Source: a virus
DNA length: 39,274 nucleotides
Virus record (IMG/VR): IMGVR_UViG_3300045988_104228
Coordinates: 1 to 39,274 of that record
Reading direction: 5' to 3' (one strand)
The translations under genes were made by a program, and so were the position numbers. The notes beneath the pieces are model-generated. The model saw only the letters and a list, made by a program, of their open reading frames with translations, was not told the DNA's origin and did not search any database. Positions 2,615-39,274 of the stretch are shown in pieces. Positions within the stretch are counted from its first letter, which is position 1. Each line of letters starts with the position of its first letter.

Positions 2615-3796
2615 ATGAATATAGGAGATATAATGCGCACTCGACGTCAAGAACTTGGCTTGACTCTTGAAGAAGTAGGAGATTATGTCGGCGTAGGTAA
2701 AAGCACCGTTAGAAAGTGGGAAAATGGAGATATCGAGAACATGAAGCGAGATAAAATTGCGCTTCTCAGCAAAATTCTCAAGTTAAGCCCTTTGACATTT
2801 ATAACTGGAGAAGTCGAATATGGCACTCCTGACAACATCATCCCTCTCCCAAAAATGAAAAAGATTCCACTACTCGGGACAATAGCTTGTGGAGAACCTA
2901 TTCTGGCGGCTGAAAATATCGAAGCTCTTATCAATGCAGACGAAAATCTCAACGCAGATTTCGCGCTCCGCTGCAAGGGTGACAGTATGATAAATGCCCG
3001 TATATTTGACGGTGATATCGTGAGCTACACAATGAACAACATATCAACCTTTAACAACCCTGCATTCGGCAGTGTGAGAGCTGTCAGTGTGAACGACAAA
3101 CCGTATTTTGTCGGCAGAGATGTCGCCGAGATACTCGGATATAGTAATCCGCGAAAAGCAATCGGCGACCATGTAGACGATGAAGATAAAACCGATGGGG
3201 TAACGATTCGTGACTCCATCGGTAGGGAGCAAAAACCCATAATCATCAACGAGTCAGGTCTTTACAGCCTTATCCTCTCAAGCAAACTCCCAAAAGCCAA
3301 AGAGTTCAAGCGCTGGGTAACGGCGGAAGTGCTTCCGGCAATCCGCAAAACAGGCGGCTATGTCAACGACACGGCACAGTTCGTCGAGAGCTATTTCGGA
3401 CAGCTCGAACCGAATCAGAAACACGCGCTGACGATGATGTTTGACGAGAGCAAAAGAATGAGCGCACAGCTCAAGGAGCAAGCCCCGAAAGTTCTCTTCG
3501 CGAACGCGGTAGAGACGGCACATAACTCGATTCTTATCGGCGACCTTGCGAAAATCATAAGGCAGAACGGCGTTGACATCGGTCAGAAGAGACTTTTCGA
3601 GTGGTTGCGTCAGAACGGATATCTCATCAAAGACGGTCAGAGCAAGAACATGCCGACTCAGAAAGCGATGGAAATGAGTCTCTTCGAGGTCAAAGAAAGC
3701 ACGATAAACAACCCTGACGGCTCGGTGAGAGTTACCCGAACGACAAAGGTCACAGGCAAAGGTCAGACCTATTTTGTCAAGAAATTCTTGTCGTGA
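2615..3796 (+). CDS. Chimeric ORF: XRE HTH plus the N-terminal half of an S24 peptidase (CI/LexA-like, aa 1-136) fused in frame to a BRO-N/KilAC antirepressor
   Basis: HTH LGLTLEEVGDYVGVGKSTVRKWENG; S24 part IPLLGTIACGEPI...CKGDSMINARIFDGDIV; then SYT-MNNISTFNNPAFGSVRAVSVNDKPYFVGRDVAEILGY (BRO-N) and APKVLFANAVETAHNSILIGDLAKII (KilAC/ANT); SD AAAGGAGAG. Confidence 0.85.
   Translation: MNIGDIMRTRRQELGLTLEEVGDYVGVGKSTVRKWENGDIENMKRDKIALLSKILKLSPLTFITGEVEYGTPDNIIPLPKMKKIPLLGTIACGEPILAAENIEALINADENLNADFALRCKGDSMINARIFDGDIVSYTMNNISTFNNPAFGSVRAVSVNDKPYFVGRDVAEILGYSNPRKAIGDHVDDEDKTDGVTIRDSIGREQKPIIINESGLYSLILSSKLPKAKEFKRWVTAEVLPAIRKTGGYVNDTAQFVESYFGQLEPNQKHALTMMFDESKRMSAQLKEQAPKVLFANAVETAHNSILIGDLAKIIRQNGVDIGQKRLFEWLRQNGYLIKDGQSKNMPTQKAMEMSLFEVKESTINNPDGSVRVTRTTKVTGKGQTYFVKKFLS
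3032..3796 (+). CDS. Antirepressor (BRO-N + KilAC domains) as a stand-alone reading frame nested in the chimeric ORF
   Basis: ATG 3032 begins MNNISTFNNPAFG..., the usual N-terminus of BRO-family proteins. Confidence 0.6.
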   Translation: MNNISTFNNPAFGSVRAVSVNDKPYFVGRDVAEILGYSNPRKAIGDHVDDEDKTDGVTIRDSIGREQKPIIINESGLYSLILSSKLPKAKEFKRWVTAEVLPAIRKTGGYVNDTAQFVESYFGQLEPNQKHALTMMFDESKRMSAQLKEQAPKVLFANAVETAHNSILIGDLAKIIRQNGVDIGQKRLFEWLRQNGYLIKDGQSKNMPTQKAMEMSLFEVKESTINNPDGSVRVTRTTKVTGKGQTYFVKKFLS

Positions 3797-4384: not shown

Positions 4385-4886
4385 AGCATTCAAGATAGCG
4401 GATAGACTTACGCTGTTAATGGAAGAGCACGAACCGCCTGTGACGAGGTTGGAACTGGCAAACGCTGTGGGTTGCCACAAGGACACTATTTCGCGATATT
4501 GCGACGGCACAAATTCCGTGTCGTTCATCTTCGCGATTCGGATTGCTCGATTTTTCAATGTCTCGCTTGATTATCTCGTGGGACTGACAGATAGCAAGGA
4601 GATACCGCAGTGGCAAAAGCCCGGAAAACATAAACACTCAGAGCATTGGCACTTGAAAAACATCTGCAAACGCTGTTATTACCGCCGTGAAATGGTCGGG
4701 CTTGCAGGGATAAGCGGATTTGATATCGAGTACGACAACAAAGCTTGTCACTACACACTCGACACAGGCAAGTTCCGCGAGATAGAGGCGACGGACATGG
4801 AGTGCCCGTATTTTCGCCCCAAAAGAAGAGAAAGGAAAGTTGTTTCCCCGGCATGGGACAAGATGAAAAGCGATGAAAACATATGA
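4356..4886 (+). CDS. XRE-family HTH protein with a Cys/His-rich C-terminal region
   Basis: RLELANAVGCHKDTISRYCDGTNSVSFIFAIRIARFFNVSLDYLVGL HTH; SD AAAGGAG before ATG 4356. Confidence 0.7.
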   Translation: MYETTAIAPEAFKIADRLTLLMEEHEPPVTRLELANAVGCHKDTISRYCDGTNSVSFIFAIRIARFFNVSLDYLVGLTDSKEIPQWQKPGKHKHSEHWHLKNICKRCYYRREMVGLAGISGFDIEYDNKACHYTLDTGKFREIEATDMECPYFRPKRRERKVVSPAWDKMKSDENI

Positions 4887-7377
4887 CCAATTTTTAGATG
4901 ACAAGATAGAAGTCGCCAAAGAGAGCGGGTTCGAGATATCGCTCGACGAAATTAACCCGGCACTCAAACCTCACCAGAAGCTCGCCGTTCAATGGGCGGT
5001 CAGAGGCGGCAGGCGCGGACTGTTCGAGCGGTTTGGACTCGGCAAGACCGTGCAGGAACTCGAATTTTGCCGTATAGTCACCGAGCATGAGGGCGGTCAG
5101 GCTCTTATAGTGCTTCCGCTCGGCGTGCGTCAAGAGTTCACCCGTGACGCAAGAGAGCTGTTGCATATCCCCGAGCCCGTATATGTCACCTGCATGGACG
5201 AGGTAAGAGCTTCAGATGCACAAATCCTCATGACCAACTACGAGCGAGTCAGAGACGGAGACATAGACCCCAAATATTTCACGGCGGTCAGCCTTGACGA
5301 GGCGGCGGTACTTCGCTCTTATGGCTCAAAAACCTATCAAACTTTTTTTCCGAAGTTCAAGGGAATTAAATATAAGCTTGTGGCGACCGCCACGCCGAGC
5401 CCGAACAGATATAAAGAGCTTATCCATTACGCAGGGTTTCTCGACCTTATGGACACGGGGCAGGCACTTACACGCTTTTTCAAACGCGATTCTACAAAAG
5501 CTAACAACCTGCAGCTCTATCCGAGTATGGAGCGTGAATTTTGGCTCTGGGTTGCGTCGTGGGGGCTGTTCCTAAGCTCGCCCGCCGACCTTGGACTCGA
5601 TGCGACGGGCTACGATTTACCGCCGTTTGAAGTCCGTACCCATGTCATAGACGACGACATGGAAAACTTGCCCGCCGACCGTGACGGACAGTTCAAGCTG
5701 TTGAGAGATACCGCGACATCGTTATCTGAGGCGGCACGGGAAAAAAGCTCAAGTATATTGGCGCGAGTAGCGAAAGCAAAAGAGCTGATAGACGAAGCAA
5801 GCCCCGACGAGCATTTTATTCTGTGGCATGACCTCGAAGCTGAACGTCATGCGATTAAAAAGGCTATTCCTGAAGCTGTCGACATTTACGGCAGTATGGA
5901 CTATGACGAACGCGAACGCCGCGTTATTGACTTCCAAGAGGGCAAAACAAGGATATTCGCCACAAAGAAGAGCCTTTCCGGCTGCGGGTGCAATTTTCAG
6001 AAATATTGCCACCGTGCGATATTCGTCGGTATTGACTATGAGTTCAACGACTTTATTCAGGCAATTCACAGAATACACCGCTTCTTGCAGACCGAAAAGG
6101 TGATTATCGACATAATCTATACCCAAGCGGAAGAAGAAATCTGGGAAGCACTCCGTGAGAAGTGGAAACGGCACGACGAATTAGCACAGAAGATGTCCGA
6201 AATCATCAAAAAATACGGCTTGTCATCTCCGCATATCGCCGAGCAGCTGAAAAGAAGTAAAGGAGTCAAAAGAGTGGAAATCAAAAGAGAAAGGTTCACA
6301 GCCGTGAATAACGACTGCGTTGACGAGACACGAAAAATGCCCTCTGATAGCGTCGGATTGATTCACACGTCAATCCCATTCTCCAATCATTACGAATATA
6401 CCCCGTCATATAACGACTTCGGCCACAACGCGACAACAGCCCAGTTTTTCAAACAAATGGACTATTTGACCCCTGAACTGCTTCGCGTGTTACAGCCCGG
6501 CAGAGTCTGCGCGGTTCATGTTAAAGACCGCGTTCTCTTCGGCAATGTGACGGGCACGGGCTTTCCGACTGTTGAACCGTTCCACGCGATGTGCATAAGC
6601 CACTACCAAAAGCACGGCTTTCAGTATTTCGGCATGATAACCATCTGCACCGATGTTGTCCGCGAGAACAATCAAACTTACCGTCTCGGCTGGACGGAAC
6701 AGTGCAAAGACGGCACGAAGATGGGCGTCGGCTGTCCTGAATATATCTTGCTTTTCCGAAAACTTCCGAGCGATACAACGGACGGATATGCAGATGTCCC
6801 CGTCACCAAAAGCAAAGACGACTATACCCGCGCCCAGTGGCAGATTGACGCGAACGGTTATCAGCGGTCAAGCGGGAACCGACTTGTCACCCGCGAGGAA
6901 CTCAAAGACGCGCCCGTTCGAGTGCTCGAGAGAATGTATCGTCAATATTCCCGCGAAACGGTCTACGACTACGCCGACCACGTAAAACTCGCCAAAGAAC
7001 TCGATGAAAAGGGACATCTTCCCGCCACTTTCGCAGTGGTCTCGCCCGGCAGCTGGAGCGACGAGATATGGGACGATATCAACCGTATGCGCACACTCAA
7101 CACAACGCAGAGCAGACGCCGTCAGAATCTTCATGTATGCCCGTTGCAGCTCGATATCGTGGAGCGGGTAATAAACAGATATTCCAACAAAAACGACCTT
7201 GTATATGACCCGTTCGGCGGTCTTATGACCGTTCCGTATATGGCAGTTAAAATGGGGCGCAGGGGCTACGGTTGCGAACTTAACCCTGACTATTTCCGCG
7301 ATGGCGTGGGCTATCTCGAAGCGGCAGAAGCACAGATAGGCGCACCGACGCTATTTGACTTAATGGAGGGAGCTTAA
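4873..7377 (+). CDS. SNF2/DEAD-like helicase fused to an N6/N4-type DNA methyltransferase (834 aa)
   Basis: Helicase motifs FGLGKTVQ, SLDEAAVLRS, ATATPSPN and a helicase-C region; methylase motifs HTSIPFSNHY ((D/S)PP(Y/F)-like) and DPFGGLMTVPYMAVKMGRRGYGCELNPDYF (AdoMet motif I). Confidence 0.8.
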   Translation: MKTYDQFLDDKIEVAKESGFEISLDEINPALKPHQKLAVQWAVRGGRRGLFERFGLGKTVQELEFCRIVTEHEGGQALIVLPLGVRQEFTRDARELLHIPEPVYVTCMDEVRASDAQILMTNYERVRDGDIDPKYFTAVSLDEAAVLRSYGSKTYQTFFPKFKGIKYKLVATATPSPNRYKELIHYAGFLDLMDTGQALTRFFKRDSTKANNLQLYPSMEREFWLWVASWGLFLSSPADLGLDATGYDLPPFEVRTHVIDDDMENLPADRDGQFKLLRDTATSLSEAAREKSSSILARVAKAKELIDEASPDEHFILWHDLEAERHAIKKAIPEAVDIYGSMDYDERERRVIDFQEGKTRIFATKKSLSGCGCNFQKYCHRAIFVGIDYEFNDFIQAIHRIHRFLQTEKVIIDIIYTQAEEEIWEALREKWKRHDELAQKMSEIIKKYGLSSPHIAEQLKRSKGVKRVEIKRERFTAVNNDCVDETRKMPSDSVGLIHTSIPFSNHYEYTPSYNDFGHNATTAQFFKQMDYLTPELLRVLQPGRVCAVHVKDRVLFGNVTGTGFPTVEPFHAMCISHYQKHGFQYFGMITICTDVVRENNQTYRLGWTEQCKDGTKMGVGCPEYILLFRKLPSDTTDGYADVPVTKSKDDYTRAQWQIDANGYQRSSGNRLVTREELKDAPVRVLERMYRQYSRETVYDYADHVKLAKELDEKGHLPATFAVVSPGSWSDEIWDDINRMRTLNTTQSRRRQNLHVCPLQLDIVERVINRYSNKNDLVYDPFGGLMTVPYMAVKMGRRGYGCELNPDYFRDGVGYLEAAEAQIGAPTLFDLMEGA

Positions 7378-35861: not shown

Positions 35862-36863
35862 ATGAATATCTGCGTATCAATCGGTCACGGAAAATCAGCA
35901 AAGGGCGGCTATGACAGCGGCGCACTCGGCGGAAACTATCAGGAATTTAAGATAGGACGCGAAATAGGCAGGTACATAGGCGAGATTTTTAAAGGCTATG
36001 CCTGCACAGCCGATGTCATAAACTATGACGCGACGCTTTATCTCACCGAGCGAATAGCCCACGTCAACAAACACGGCTATGATTTGGCGATTGAAATCCA
36101 CCTCAACGCCGCAGGCGGCACAGGCTCGGAGGTCTATTACAAGCACAAGAGCGCAAAGGGTAAAAAGCTCGCGGCGGCAATCAGCAAGAGCATAGCTAAT
36201 ACTTTCGGCATCCGCGACAGAGGCGCCAAGGTCAAAATTAATCCTGCAAACGGCACGGACTATTTTGGATTTGTCCGCTCGTGCAAGTGCGAATCTCTGC
36301 TGATAGAGACCGTGTTTATTGATACAGCGAGCGACCGCAAGCACGTCGAGACCGCCGCAGGACAGAAGCAGTGCGCAGAGGCTATCGTCAAGGCTATCGC
36401 CGATTTTTACGGCATAAAGAAAAAGTCCGCTCCGGCAGTCAAGCCGAGTGAGGACGAGCCTGCGTCGGCAACCGTCAGAGCGGGCGATATCGTCAAGATA
36501 AAGGGCAGCAAGTACGCCACCGGGCAGAAGATACCGATGTGGGTCAAGCTTAAAAAGCACACAGTTAAATCAATCAGCGGAAACAAGGCACTGCTGAAAG
36601 AAATTAACAGCTGGGTGTACATAAGCGATTTGACCGTTTTGCAGTCAACTGCAAAGACCGTCACGGTCGGTAGCAAGGTGAAAATCAAGTCGGGCGCGAC
36701 CTACGGCGGACTCACGGCGGCACGCGGCTCCATCGTTCCGGGTGCGCAGCTGACAAGGACTCACACCGTCGGCAAAATACAGACAAACGGCGGAGTCCGG
36801 GAGGCTCTTTTGACTGATATCGCGAGCTGGGTTGCCGTCAAATATCTGGAGGTAGTCGGATGA
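35862..36863 (+). CDS. Endolysin: N-acetylmuramoyl-L-alanine amidase (Amidase_3) with two C-terminal SH3-like wall-binding repeats
   Basis: ICVSIGHGKSAKGGYDSGA, AIEIHLNA, ESLLIETVFID; duplicated G(D/S).VKIK...W(V).(I/V) modules. Confidence 0.9.
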   Translation: MNICVSIGHGKSAKGGYDSGALGGNYQEFKIGREIGRYIGEIFKGYACTADVINYDATLYLTERIAHVNKHGYDLAIEIHLNAAGGTGSEVYYKHKSAKGKKLAAAISKSIANTFGIRDRGAKVKINPANGTDYFGFVRSCKCESLLIETVFIDTASDRKHVETAAGQKQCAEAIVKAIADFYGIKKKSAPAVKPSEDEPASATVRAGDIVKIKGSKYATGQKIPMWVKLKKHTVKSISGNKALLKEINSWVYISDLTVLQSTAKTVTVGSKVKIKSGATYGGLTAARGSIVPGAQLTRTHTVGKIQTNGGVREALLTDIASWVAVKYLEVVG

Positions 36864-37276: not shown

Positions 37277-37579
37277 ATGGCAAAAATCAAAGACATACTC
37301 GCAAACATCAGCAACGTCAAGGTCGGCACGTGGGTGCGCGGCATCCTGCTGATTATCTCGCTCGTCAACATGGCGCTTTCCGCTGCCGGAAAAGCTCCGA
37401 TTCCTGCGGACTACAATGAGCTGTACACCATCGTCAGCGTCGTGTTCTCGGTGCTTGTCGGAATTTCGGCATACTGGAAAAATAACAGCTTTACTGAGGC
37501 GGCACAGACTGCCGATAAGTTCCTGCACGAGCAGGGCTCGGCGATTGAGGATCCGGGCACGGACGAGGAGGCAGAGTGA
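37277..37579 (+). CDS. Holin (LL-H / phage_holin_1-like)
   Basis: Two TM segments (WVRGILLIISLVNMALSAAG; IVSVVFSVLVGISAYW) and an acidic C-terminus; next to the endolysin. Confidence 0.7.
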   Translation: MAKIKDILANISNVKVGTWVRGILLIISLVNMALSAAGKAPIPADYNELYTIVSVVFSVLVGISAYWKNNSFTEAAQTADKFLHEQGSAIEDPGTDEEAE

Positions 37580-37684: not shown

Positions 37685-37717
37685 TTCCGTGCGTTTTCCG
37701 TGCGTTTTCCGTGCGTT
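37685..37717. repeat. Perfect tandem repeat, 3 x 11 bp (TTCCGTGCGTT)
   Basis: Read directly; starts 2 nt after the last lysis-cassette stop codon. Confidence 0.9.
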
Positions 37718-37758
37718 TTGAAACCAACTTGCTTACAACTTGCGACTAACTTAGGATT

Positions 37759-37810
37759 AAAAAACGACCGGGCAGGGGAGAAATCCCTTGCCCGGTCATT
37801 TTTGTTTTTG
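37759..37810. terminator. Bidirectional rho-independent terminator
   Basis: 13-bp stem GACCGGGCAGGGG/CCCTTGCCCGGTC, flanked by AAAAAA on the left and TTTTTGTTTTT on the right; separates convergent genes. Confidence 0.8.
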
Positions 37811-37812
37811 GA

Positions 37813-37998
37813 TTAGTCGACAAGCGCGAGCTCGTCGTAGTAGTACTGTTTGTCGTCGATTGTGACTTCCGGCTCGCCGTTGATGGCTGCGTCGTTGCTG
37901 TACTCGCCCGCGAAAGCGATGGCTTCGTCAAGTGTAAAGCTGCGGTTGGTGATGATCTCGTAGACGGTTTCGTTGGTGTTGGTGTTGATGATTTTCAT
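37813..37998 (-). CDS. Small acidic hypothetical protein (61 aa)
   Basis: Own consensus promoter; 13 D/E versus 3 K/R. Confidence 0.6.
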   Translation of the reverse strand: MKIINTNTNETVYEIITNRSFTLDEAIAFAGEYSNDAAINGEPEVTIDDKQYYYDELALVD

Positions 37999-38035
37999 TT
38001 TCTTTTATCCTTTCTTTCAGAGCTTTCTGCTCTTT

Positions 38036-38087
38036 CATTGTCTATATTATAGCATACTATGCCGAGTATGTCAACACTTTTTTCAAA
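38036..38087. repeat. 52-bp promoter-region repeat, copy 1 (2 mismatches versus 38732-38783)
   Basis: cattgtctatattatagcatactatgccgagtatgtcaacacttttttcaaa. Confidence 0.9.
38046..38074 (-). promoter_or_regulatory. Consensus sigma70 promoter TTGACA-17-TATAAT with the inverted repeat CATACT-n6-AGTATG in the spacer
   Basis: Reverse complement reads TTGACAtactcggcatagtatgcTATAAT; drives 37813-37998. Confidence 0.8.
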
Positions 38088-38104
38088 AGTTTTTGAAAAA
38101 TATT

Positions 38105-38139
38105 TAAAAAAGCAGTCTCTTCCGCGAGGCTGCTCTTTT
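38105..38139 (-). terminator. Rho-independent terminator of the 38690-38154 operon
   Basis: AGCAGTCTC-ttccgc-GAGGCTGCT, with a T-run on the minus strand (AAAAAA on plus). Confidence 0.65.
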
Positions 38140-38153
38140 ATCTGTTTCCGTTA

Positions 38154-38351
38154 TTATTCGTCGCCTAAAAAGTCGACAATTGCTTTTTTGATGATCTGCG
38201 CCTGTGGTATGCCGTCGGCTTCGCATTTTGCCTTGAATCGTGCGACTAAGTCTTTCGGCAAGCTGGCGCGCACCATAGTGTATGTCTTGTCGTTATAACG
38301 GCGCTTGACCGCCGTCGAAGTGTGCGTCTTGCGCTTTGGTGCTTCTTCCAT
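38154..38351 (-). CDS. Ribbon-helix-helix (CopG/Arc/MetJ-like) DNA-binding protein
   Basis: YTMVRASLPKDLVARFKAKCEADGIPQAQIIKKAIVDFL fits a beta-strand plus two helices, the RHH pattern. Confidence 0.65.
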   Translation of the reverse strand: MEEAPKRKTHTSTAVKRRYNDKTYTMVRASLPKDLVARFKAKCEADGIPQAQIIKKAIVDFLGDE

Positions 38352-38378
38352 ACTTTTCTATCTCCACTTCCACTTGGA

Positions 38379-38690
38379 TTAAAACTTTATTTTGACCTGA
38401 TTGACAACGTTCTTGTCGTTTTCTGTGCCAATCTCAAGCACCATCCAAGGATTCTCCCAGTCGCAAGCGTCGGATCCGGGGCTGTAGCCATCGTGCACAT
38501 CGAAATCATCGTTGATTTTCCAATACACCTGATACTGATTGCCCGACTCATCTTCTGCTGTTGCTTCGTACCAGTTGTCCCAAACTCCGGTTGCGAGGCA
38601 TTTGCCGTCTTCGGAGACTTCGTGGCAGAAAGCACCTTCATAGCCGCAGATGTAAGCATCCTGAATAAGTTTGATTTCTTTGATTGCCAT
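38379..38690 (-). CDS. Acidic hypothetical protein (103 aa)
   Basis: First gene after the promoter; about 21 D/E versus 7 K. Confidence 0.6.
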   Translation of the reverse strand: MAIKEIKLIQDAYICGYEGAFCHEVSEDGKCLATGVWDNWYEATAEDESGNQYQVYWKINDDFDVHDGYSPGSDACDWENPWMVLEIGTENDKNVVNQVKIKF

Positions 38691-38731
38691 TGTTTTTTCT
38701 TCCTTTCTTTTTTTGAGGTTCTTGCCTCATT

Positions 38732-38783
38732 CATTGCCTATATTATATCATACTATGCCGAGTATGTCAACACTTTTTTCAAA
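38732..38783. repeat. 52-bp promoter-region repeat, copy 2
   Basis: cattgcctatattatatcatactatgccgagtatgtcaacacttttttcaaa. Confidence 0.9.
38742..38770 (-). promoter_or_regulatory. Second copy of the consensus promoter TTGACA-17-TATAAT with the same spacer inverted repeat
   Basis: Reverse complement reads TTGACAtactcggcatagtatgaTATAAT; drives 38690-38154. Confidence 0.8.
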
Positions 38784-38869
38784 CTTTTTTTAAAAAATTT
38801 GAAAGTTTTTTCTTTTTGATTTTAGCAACATATAACTATATAGTCAAGCCAAAAAAGTGGACACATAAC

Positions 38870-38891
38870 ATTTTGCCGACGTCGGCAAAAT
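38870..38891. repeat. 22-bp perfect palindrome ATTTTGCCGAC|GTCGGCAAAAT
   Basis: Read directly; flanking bases are wrong for a terminator (A-run follows the stem on both strands). Confidence 0.9.
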
Positions 38892-38956
38892 ATAAAACAG
38901 CAGCCCCGCCGGAGCGAGACTGCCGCGTGAAATAGGATATAGAGCCGGAGACTCTT
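38890..38956 (-). ncRNA. Candidate small RNA of about 65 nt, with its own promoter and terminator
   Basis: Promoter TTGCAA-16-TATAAT (38963-38990, minus); 5' hairpin AGAGTC-tcc-GGCTCT; 10-bp terminator stem (38900-38923) followed by TGTTTTATATTTT. Confidence 0.3.
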
Positions 38957-39011
38957 TATTGCATTATAGCACGATTCTTTATAATTGCAAGAGAAAATAA
39001 AATATAAAATA

Positions 39012-39040
39012 TTGACTTGTACGATCTTTGTGAATATAAT
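39012..39040 (+). promoter_or_regulatory. Sigma70-type promoter TTGACT-17-TATAAT reading into the att region
   Basis: ttgacttgtacgatctttgtgaatataat; no ORF downstream before the int 3' end. Confidence 0.5.
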
Positions 39041-39083
39041 ATCGAACTGAGTCGAGATAGTTTGGCGCGGTTTGAAAAGTTTT

Positions 39084-39105
39084 CAACAACTTACACACAA
39101 CTAAC
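39084..39105. repeat. Two copies of the 11-bp arm-like unit (CAACAACTTAC ACACAACTAAC)
   Basis: Same motif as 82-114, on the other side of the inverted-repeat core. Confidence 0.45.
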
Positions 39106-39155
39106 AAAACAAGTCCGAAAGCCTTATTTTTCAAGGAATTAGTGTTATCCGCACC

Positions 39156-39274
39156 ATAACATTACAGTCCTTGAAACTCAATGTTTTCAAGGACTGTGTT
39201 AATTTTAAGGCGGTCTAAAACAGGTTATTTTCGGCTCTACAACTAACACACAACTAACACACAACTAACAAAAT
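39156..39274. repeat. Direct terminal repeat, right copy
   Basis: Exact identity with 1-119. Confidence 0.95.

Follow-up and report, generated by a model that had tools for sequence, protein, structure and literature searches.

What controls a cluster of small genes that sits behind duplicated consensus promoters at one end of a phage genome, and what might its products do? The question is raised by IMGVR_UViG_3300045988_104228, an IMG/VR virus record analysed at its full length of 39,274 nucleotides (hereafter the window), which the gene content annotated across it marks as a temperate phage. Near one end, an island encodes two acidic proteins of 103 and 61 amino acids (aa) and, on the same strand, a 65-aa protein with the marks of a ribbon–helix–helix (RHH) regulator. 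A sequence-only reading of this DNA had likened the island to the anti-CRISPR (Acr) and anti-defence operons that are controlled by anti-CRISPR-associated (Aca) repressors. Our analysis points to a two-promoter regulon of a prophage-borne, Aca-type RHH autorepressor with defence-inhibiting cargo, a combined claim to which we give a probability of roughly 0.6. The parts of this claim differ in strength: the RHH protein very probably represses both promoters through a shared dyad, whereas an anti-defence role for at least one of the two cargo proteins stands at close to even odds. The island is laid out as follows, with positions given in the window.

37760-37803, both strands: bidirectional terminator with 20-nt arms, 90% complementary; the minus-strand RNA folds at -31.4 kcal/mol (z -7.9) and continues into U6
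37813-37998, minus strand: cargo gene 2, 61 aa, isoelectric point (pI) 4.1, the sole gene of the cassette without an RHH gene
37999-38039, minus strand: 5′ leader of cassette 2 (the 61-aa cassette), with hairpin AGAGC-AGAAA-GCUCU at 38019-38033 and ribosome-binding site AAAGGA
38046-38074, minus strand: promoter copy 1, TTGACA-17-TATAAT with TG, operator at 38053-38070, inside repeat 38030-38108
38107-38141, minus strand: terminator closing the operon of the 103-aa and RHH genes, -18.2 kcal/mol (z -4.6), running into U6; hairpin at 38111-38134
38154-38351, minus strand: 65-aa RHH protein, predicted autorepressor (Aca-like)
38379-38690, minus strand: cargo gene 1, 103 aa, pI 4.1, Trp-rich, predicted all-β
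38691-38735, minus strand: 5′ leader of cassette 1 (the 103-aa/RHH cassette), with hairpin GAGG-CAAGAA-CCUC at 38715-38728 and a ribosome-binding site
38742-38770, minus strand: promoter copy 2, TTGACA-17-TATAAT with TG, operator at 38749-38766, inside repeat 38726-38804

The architecture that the sequence-only reading had described was recovered, namely the three open reading frames (ORFs), a perfect TTGACA-17-TATAAT promoter in each copy of a repeated segment, an inverted repeat CATACT-n6-AGTATG in the spacer overlapping the -35 element and, by terminator scan and RNA folding, terminators behind both the RHH gene and the 61-aa gene. The duplication, put at 52 bp, proved longer: a 52-nt core with 2 mismatches lies within copies of 79 nt (38030-38108 and 38726-38804) that are 89% identical, the latter taking in an A/T-rich upstream tract. 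On the minus strand both copies match the promoter consensus at 12/12 positions in a promoter scan and add an extended -10 TG, which sits one base upstream of the -10 hexamer; sites within one mismatch of TTGACA-17-TATAAT number 3 in the window against 0.14 expected, a count reached by 0 of 100 shuffles. The dyad, CATACT-CGGCAT-AGTATG, spans 18 bp (38053-38070 and 38749-38766) and is identical in the two copies including its centre; it begins with the CA that ends the -35 hexamer and finishes with the TG of the extended -10. Besides the two cassette promoters, no further site within 2 mismatches of the dyad was found in the 39-kb window. Copy 2 is followed by the 103-aa gene, the RHH gene and a terminator, and copy 1 by the 61-aa gene and the bidirectional terminator, which closes the lysis operon on the plus strand as well. 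The two leaders fold at -5.9 kcal/mol (z -3.8; cassette 1, kept in relatives) and -6.4 kcal/mol (z -2.8; cassette 2), and their hairpins share a position but differ in sequence.

Is the 65-aa protein an RHH protein? It has a basic N-terminal arm (KRKTHTSTAVKRRYNDKTY), a β-strand TMVRASL, two helices and no C-terminal extension. For the window sequence alone, the assignment made by the sequence-only reading is weak, with Pfam RHH_1 (PF01402) at E 0.0018 and 18.6 bits, under the 20.5 cut-off, and RepB-RCR_reg (PF10723) at 14.9 bits against a cut-off of 21; PHROG 3180, “Arc-like repressor”, matches at E 8e-6 and an NCBIfam RepA regulator model at 8.5e-4. Across homologues it is concordant: there are 273 of them, and most of the 120 listed carry precomputed hits to PF10723, PF01402 or both. 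In the family alignment (A2), the basic N-terminal segment KRKTHTSTAVKRRYNxKTY and both helices are conserved and the β-strand varies; helix B runs to about residue 62 of 65, members are 62–66 aa long, and 3–5 residues follow the helix. We read the evidence that the protein is an RHH regulator as weak but concordant. The hosts named in genome records for this family are gut Clostridia (Oscillospiraceae, Ruminococcaceae, Acutalibacter, Roseburia and others), and a tblastn search of 50,697 records of isolate phages with the window protein gave no match.

Does this protein read the dyad? We approached the question from both sides. Outward from the RHH gene, 80 IMG/VR loci and 80 loci of species-representative genomes were collected, down to about 51% identity, and a near-consensus promoter lies within 1.6 kb upstream of 126 of the 137 RHH genes that have enough upstream sequence. 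Among 98 unique promoters, the CATACT/AGTATG arms are exact in 77 and carry at most one mismatch in 85, and information content is high at the -35, TACT, AGTATG and -10 but falls to almost nothing across the six central bases. Outward from the promoter–dyad, with the protein ignored, the search returned more than 119 IMG/VR stretches; a family RHH gene occurs within 3 kb in 70 of the 85 untruncated unique instances assessed (56 downstream, 8 just upstream in the two-promoter layout of the window, and 6 divergent at 92 nt). An exact operator search of the species-representative genomes gave no match, and the family was reached there through the protein only.

The variable centre of the dyad carries the more telling signal. 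We took as a β-strand triplet the three residues that, by alignment, correspond to the base contacts of Arc (M, R and S in the window protein). Across 122 unique RHH/operator pairs, the mean identity of the central 6-mer is 0.78–0.92 where the triplet is the same and 0.24–0.42, near random, where it differs, and this covariation persists in every bin of helix-region identity, 90–100% included, although such stratification removes shared ancestry from the statistics only in part. Examples of the pairing are MRS with CGGCAT, xSR or xAR with GCAAGC, SIR with GCAATA, ATY with CTCGAG or ATCAAT, and QVS or LSS with AATAxx. Moreover, of 12 non-redundant loci with several promoters, 10 show a single core throughout, four different cores being represented among them. 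An exception is L170 (1986-3300), where two adjacent cassettes each have their own RHH gene and core; its β-strands are KQVATQV and GSIVVRI and its operator cores TATAAA and GCAACA, and the locus looks like two orthogonal pairs. Covariation and matched cores are the pattern expected if the RHH protein reads the dyad and one RHH protein serves all promoters of its locus, and we regard them as strong support, not proof, that it does so.

Several variations on this arrangement were seen along the way. At four loci (L106, L135, L168 and L179) a reversed, dyad-bearing, promoter-like site lies 16–17 nt past the RHH stop codon and faces the RHH gene, where it could give rise to convergent or antisense transcription or act as a roadblock. 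At two IMG/VR loci a promoter with the same dyad arms, and with no RHH gene found within 3 kb, precedes an operon, which encodes a PAPS-reductase-like protein in L214 and a SIR2-family protein in L224; neither was counted as evidence. A relative with a further cargo gene (L292) was left out as a seemingly indel-ridden assembly. Among the isolate phages, a DNA search matched only the promoter-like stretch, in two Streptococcus phages. In these, Javan110 (L001) and Javan73 (L002), an A/T tract and a perfect TTGACA-17-TATAAT promoter at 488-559, just after the lysin gene, drive a 43-aa membrane peptide and a 59-aa protein resembling helix–turn–helix (HTH) regulators; the spacer holds a different dyad, TCACGG-N4-CCGTGA, and given this and the HTH partner we set the cassette aside as apparently analogous, with a different regulator, and not part of the same system.

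How would such a regulon work? In the mechanism that we favour, an RHH dimer or tetramer would bind CATACT-CGGCAT-AGTATG at both promoters and would exclude RNA polymerase, as the -35 and the extended -10 have bases in common with this dyad. Most likely, the β-sheet of one dimer would read the variable central 6 bp and the invariant basic N-terminal arm the invariant outer arms. Upon entry of naive DNA into a cell, or upon induction, a burst of the 103-aa, RHH and 61-aa proteins would follow; as RHH protein accumulates, repression would set in, leaving a low, self-limited level in lysogens. The acidic cargo proteins would be accessory factors that act on the host early, most likely by inhibiting one of its defence systems, a step for which we see moderate support. 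The repeated promoter–operator, finally, would be a portable module and a point of recombination for cargo swaps between phages.

How much of this logic is already known? Aca14, a 66-aa RHH protein of Pasteurella multocida, represses its own and a neighbouring anti-defence operon, as seen by electrophoretic mobility shift assays and reporters, through inverted repeats overlapping the -10 element, and its operons contain recognised Acrs (Feussner et al., NAR 2026, PMC13551039; bioRxiv 10.64898/2026.07.27.740549). As in the window, whose RHH protein is 65 aa long, the Aca14 gene ends a small operon and near-identical repeats lie in its own and the neighbouring promoter (here identical 18-bp dyads); both proteins share a pre-strand Y-N-x-x-x-Y, the strand, and then L/V-P. 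An alignment of the A2 profile with Aca14 by hhalign gives a probability of 89% and E 2.3e-6, as a single comparison with a reconstructed Aca14 sequence (rebuilt from the supplementary gBlock, one base restored), at 17% identity over 46 columns. BLASTP of the window protein against Aca14 is not significant, and tblastn with Aca14, run against about 2 Mb of sequence, picks up part of the family at 1e-4 to 1e-2. The operators are built differently: that of Aca14, TGTATATGA-N2-TCATATACA, is AT-rich and overlaps the -10, whereas the window's CATACT-N6-AGTATG fills the spacer and touches the -35 and the extended -10. The hosts differ too, Gram-positive gut Clostridia here and Proteobacteria there, and the Aca14 paper makes no mention of Clostridia or Bacillota (PMC13551039). 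The Aca14 operons hold recognised Acrs, whereas the window cargo is unrecognised. We class the RHH device as one that works in the manner of an Aca, and the two-promoter logic put forward by the sequence-only reading matches Aca14; that it belongs to the Aca14 family itself is less certain, the operator being of another type.

Three other regulated systems offer partial parallels. Canonical acr–aca operons have HTH repressors such as Aca1 and Aca2 (Stanley et al. 2019, as cited in PMC8708921 and PMC13551039). Going by those accounts, they share with the window a strong promoter with an operator in it, variable small genes and a conserved gene for a DNA-binding repressor, here at the operon end, and they are expressed in a burst that is then shut off, with the conserved regulator usable as bait for cargo; the window differs in having an RHH and not an HTH protein, no validated Acr, and a promoter–operator duplicated as a portable unit. 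On the Bacillus conjugative plasmid p576, establishment genes, ardC among them, are driven by a strong promoter present in four copies, all repressed by the RHH protein Reg(p576) (PMC8708921). There, too, on a mobile element of Firmicutes, an RHH protein regulates itself and repeated strong promoters (two 79-nt copies in the window, with Clostridia as hosts) ahead of variable, mostly unknown cargo that includes an anti-restriction gene and is expressed transiently on entering a new cell. Its operators, however, are direct heptamers (TTATCCCnnTTATCCC) flanking the promoter, a dual arrangement next to the -35 that is absent from the window, where a dyad lies within the spacer; with a plasmid on one side and a prophage on the other, the likeness is one of architecture only. 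In archaeal viruses, anti-defence genes have been tracked down through a strong promoter that is repeated along with its regulatory sequence (PMC11065993). Such a promoter likewise marks early, small, unknown genes clustered with acr and aca, but it is of the BRE/TATA type, present in many copies and paired with the winged-HTH Aca8, whereas the window has a σA promoter in two copies and an RHH protein. What is known, then, is the concept of an RHH or Aca protein governing two promoters (Aca14 and Reg(p576)); what appears to be new is a large, uncharted RHH/operator family in phages of gut Clostridia, its unusually clean covariation, and its use as a flag for dozens of orphan genes that are candidates for anti-defence.

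What do these promoters drive? The guilt-by-association search from the RHH gene that the sequence-only reading had proposed turned up variable small genes between promoter and RHH gene, which fall into 91 cargo clusters over all loci; pI is below 5.5 in 32 of the 62 representatives of at least 60 aa. Exchange is plainest in the CGGCAT clade, where promoters and RHH proteins are near-identical and seven unrelated acidic cargo proteins occur (acidic in all but one of those listed). A 103- or 101-aa protein precedes the RHH gene in the window, L003, L006 and L012; a 99-aa protein does so in L007, a different phage with a P22-type portal whose cassette lies between replication and terminase genes; elsewhere in the clade the cargo is 108 aa (L015), two proteins of 110 aa (L016) or 79 aa (L018), and the second promoter, which has no RHH gene, drives a 61-aa or a 122-aa protein. 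The promoter and 61-aa unit (about 37804-38164) is absent from L003 and L006, where the RHH stop codon abuts the bidirectional terminator, and the 61-aa cassette is thus a discrete presence/absence insertion. In other clades some cassettes have no cargo at all, the RHH gene lying directly behind the promoter, between an XRE-HTH gene and an IS30 transposase gene. At L043 (1760-3690) and L111 (2620-4340), for instance, an 80-aa XRE-HTH protein is encoded upstream and an IS30-family transposase downstream, with a pair of membrane peptides present or absent. Such flanks suggest carriage on a different kind of mobile element.

The two cargo proteins of the window are unrecognised, as they were in the sequence-only reading: neither the 103-aa nor the 61-aa protein has a family match in Pfam, PHROGs, NCBIfam, PADLOC or PDB sequences, and Foldseek against the PDB with their AlphaFold2 (AF2) models gave none either. 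The library search proposed earlier yielded weak RHH-family matches for the regulator and no Acr or anti-defence match for the 103-aa and 61-aa proteins. Some 25 cargo proteins of relatives likewise gave no usable match in Pfam, PHROGs, NCBIfam or PADLOC, apart from the PAPS-reductase and SIR2 cases described above. The 103-aa family counts 107 representatives at 50% identity; its model is all-β, with a predicted local distance difference test (pLDDT) score of 73, and the sole match in a BFVD search is an uncharacterised phage homologue. An IMG/VR search with the family profile returned only the contig already known. Two candidates were rejected, a profile match of the family to the lectin CV39L (E 1e-5, with no stretch passing alone), judged to be Trp-repeat similarity, and a structure match to Ugi-2 at rank 4 (E 1.8), dismissed as noise. 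P0149, a family member of 176 aa, has an XRE HTH domain joined to its N-terminus, an arrangement reminiscent of self-regulating Acr–HTH fusions. The 61-aa protein has 19 homologues and an α/β model (pLDDT 85). Relatives of it (K4, 68 aa) come first behind operator promoters in 7 further loci, where they head RHH-controlled operons of several small genes; relatives also occur, without the operator, in long small-gene arrays divergent from an HTH gene.

Where, then, is the link to anti-defence? On contig L293, a related consensus promoter that retains the right arm AGTATG is followed by P0005 (98 aa, 45% identical to the 103-aa cargo), a 60-aa RHH protein of the family, a 349-aa protein and a 281-aa protein. 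The 349-aa protein is a homologue of AcrVA2, an inhibitor of Cas12a, with a phmmer E of 3.2e-13 to PDB 7ci1, the motif HxRxGHxHxxWxG and a precomputed PF26125 assignment; a search of the local Pfam copy did not return PF26125 for it. The L293 RHH protein bridges the two regulator families, with BLASTP values of 5e-7 to the window RHH and 7e-4 to Aca14, and an independent contig, L299, has the same arrangement. In the window operons themselves, searches of the libraries, the PDB and Foldseek-PDB returned no homologue of a validated Acr or anti-defence protein; such a homologue appears only in the relatives L293 and L299. Looking for the AcrVA2 link more widely, we found no relatives in IMG/VR, and a metagenome scan found the same lineage and two distant AcrVA2-like loci without an RHH gene.

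A number of findings weigh against the two-promoter regulon with defence-inhibiting cargo as we propose it. The window protein itself falls below the Pfam RHH_1 cut-off, and shared ancestry remains in part in the covariation, as said above. The AcrVA2 link comes from one lineage on three short contigs, and about 60 cargo representatives were compared with known Acr, anti-defence and defence families and with solved structures, none of them giving a match. One clade has a conserved pair of 42-aa and 55-aa proteins with a variable gene inserted between them, other clades carry pairs of small, un-Acr-like membrane peptides, and some cassettes adjoin IS30 transposases, outside phages. In addition, an operator-less promoter at 38819-38847, described below, could allow RHH-independent transcription. 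Considering the clades with membrane peptides, with the conserved pair and with no cargo, the RHH/promoter unit is a general expression cassette for accessory genes and not one dedicated to anti-defence. Of the organisation claimed by the sequence-only reading, the regulatory half (an operon closed by an RHH gene, promoters that each contain an operator, one RHH protein for two promoters) is strongly supported by linkage, covariation and core matching, while the anti-defence half is still inference.

The main rival reading is that the island is a generic moron, lysogenic-conversion or superinfection-exclusion cassette and the RHH protein holds genes of benefit to the lysogen at a steady low level; the acidic proteins would, for instance, exclude other phages or modulate host physiology and would not counter host defences during infection. 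Such a reading sits well with the classic moron position of the island, at the prophage end, with terminators on either side, opposite in strand to the late genes and lower in G+C content (41% vs about 49% elsewhere in the window), with the small membrane peptides of other RHH clades, which resemble exclusion or toxin-like peptides, and with the failure of any cargo to match an anti-defence family. Against it stand an AcrVA2 operon that shares both a 103-aa homologue and a family RHH protein, the remote similarity of the RHH protein to Aca14, and 61-aa relatives at the head of long small-gene arrays typical of early regions, and a consensus promoter under negative feedback fits an entry burst as well as it fits steady expression. 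We consider the moron reading unlikely, but worth keeping in view.

Much less probable is a switch of the kind found in phage P22 and in small plasmids. In P22 immI (Arc and Mnt) and in plasmid CopG, a small RHH protein is encoded in the operon that it represses, with the operator over or between the -35 and -10. By this account the window protein would govern the lysis–lysogeny decision or replication (copy-number control in the case of CopG), with the small proteins as parts of the circuit, as its top library matches, the “Arc-like repressor” PHROG 3180 and the RepB-RCR_reg and RepA regulators, might suggest, and in L007 the cassette does adjoin a replication-initiator gene. Arc/Mnt and CopG, however, control an antirepressor or a replication initiator, and the window regulon has neither and carries interchangeable cargo: its operator sites are confined to the two cassette promoters, neither operon has a rep gene, neither the antirepressor-like gene (2615-3796) nor the replication genes, all tens of kb distant, have an operator, and the cassette turns up in varied genomic positions and phage backbones with unrelated cargo. 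We regard this possibility as very unlikely.

Weakest of all is a type II toxin–antitoxin pair, one of the refuters that the sequence-only reading had named, with the 103-aa protein as toxin and the RHH protein as antitoxin and autorepressor: RHH antitoxins are common, weak PDB sequence matches of the RHH profile include VapB26 and DinJ, and a toxin-first gene order is known in the HigBA and BrnTA families, but the partner of near-identical RHH genes is any of at least seven unrelated proteins or is absent, the RHH protein has no toxin-binding tail (3–5 residues after helix B), the 103-aa protein is acidic and all-β with no toxin-family match in Pfam, PADLOC or PDB, and the second, identical promoter drives a lone gene without a partner, which together leave the idea scarcely credible.

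What would follow if the two-promoter regulon is real? The string TTGACATACT-N6-AGTATG-N-TATAAT would become a very specific, searchable flag for accessory and probably anti-defence genes in the phages of gut Clostridia, for which, to our knowledge, almost no anti-defence proteins have been described and where HTH-type Aca proteins fail as bait. The 91 cargo clusters recovered through the promoter–dyad and the RHH gene are mostly orphans, and the 103-aa and 61-aa proteins would be candidates for tests against host defences. The covariation of triplet and 6-bp core would amount to a recognition table for RHH–DNA specificity and would supply compact, orthogonal repressor/promoter pairs for synthetic biology in Gram-positive bacteria. 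A bolder and more doubtful extension is that the family forms a large natural set of mutually orthogonal repressor/operator pairs, with a fixed scaffold (consensus promoter, CATACT/AGTATG arms, N-terminal protein arm) and a specificity set by three β-strand residues that read the central 6 bp, that gives co-resident elements private burst-then-off cassettes, and that the 103-aa and 61-aa proteins of the window represent new families of defence inhibitors, possibly acting against Cas12a or another system of Oscillospirales.

Upstream of promoter copy 2, three further elements flank the cassettes.

38819-38847, minus strand: second promoter without an operator, TTGACT-17-TAAAAT, 10/12 with TG, about 75 nt upstream of promoter copy 2
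38870-38891, both strands: perfect 22-bp palindrome ATTTTGCCGACGTCGGCAAAAT, occurring once in the window
38890-38990, minus strand: transcription unit without an ORF, with promoter TTGCAA-16-TATAAT with TG at 38963-38990, no operator, and a terminator at 38897-38926

The operator-less promoter is kept across relatives with different cargo and phage backbones. The palindrome lies about 25 nt upstream of it and is shared by 15 loci, some from a clade in which RHH identity drops to 58%; among them the arms are conserved and the centre varies. In the ORF-less unit, the terminator folds at -30.1 kcal/mol (z -5.3) and a leader hairpin, AGAGUC..GGCUCU, resembles those of the cassette leaders; the unit is kept in L003, L006, L015 and L016, where changes in the terminator stem compensate one another. 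A small RNA of about 65 nt is one possibility, a degenerate third copy of the cassette or its leader another.

The remaining landmarks of the window concern its phage context.

119-1214, minus strand: integrase, two overlapping ORFs, at the other end of the window from the island
2615-3796: antirepressor-like gene
4873-7377: large SNF2-helicase/N6-N4 DNA methylase fusion, early region
35862-36863: amidase
37277-37579: SPP1-type holin

The annotated genes also include one for an HTH-S24/Bro/Ant protein. In the integrase, the ORF at 735-1214 corresponds to the SAM-like N-terminal domain and that at 119-778 to the catalytic domain, and the split may be a frameshift or an assembly error. The SNF2–methylase gene has no operator nearby and is unrelated to the RHH regulon; a role in self-protection or anti-restriction is possible. 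The island was said to lie between the lysis cassette and the attachment site (att), and its surroundings agree with this: the amidase and holin genes are on one side, and L006, an integrated relative, matches the window only as far as 39156 and then continues into host DNA, which places the island between the lysis genes and the prophage end. An Rfam scan of the island returned sub-threshold noise only, and no tRNA genes were found. Between the lysis genes and the bidirectional terminator, three tandem 11-nt units overlap as TTCCGTGCGTTTT (37685-37719), and different short tandem repeats occur at the matching place in relatives (L003, 4240-4330). Beyond the ORF-less unit, a near-consensus promoter, TTGACT-17-TATAAT (39012-39040, plus strand), faces about 150 nt of non-coding sequence that ends in a hairpin at 39163-39198, and ACAACTAACACACAACTAAC repeats occur on the plus strand at 39086, 39239 and 39250. 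This stretch (39012-39274) may be the att region, since L006 homology stops within it at 39156, or the source of a small RNA, or both.

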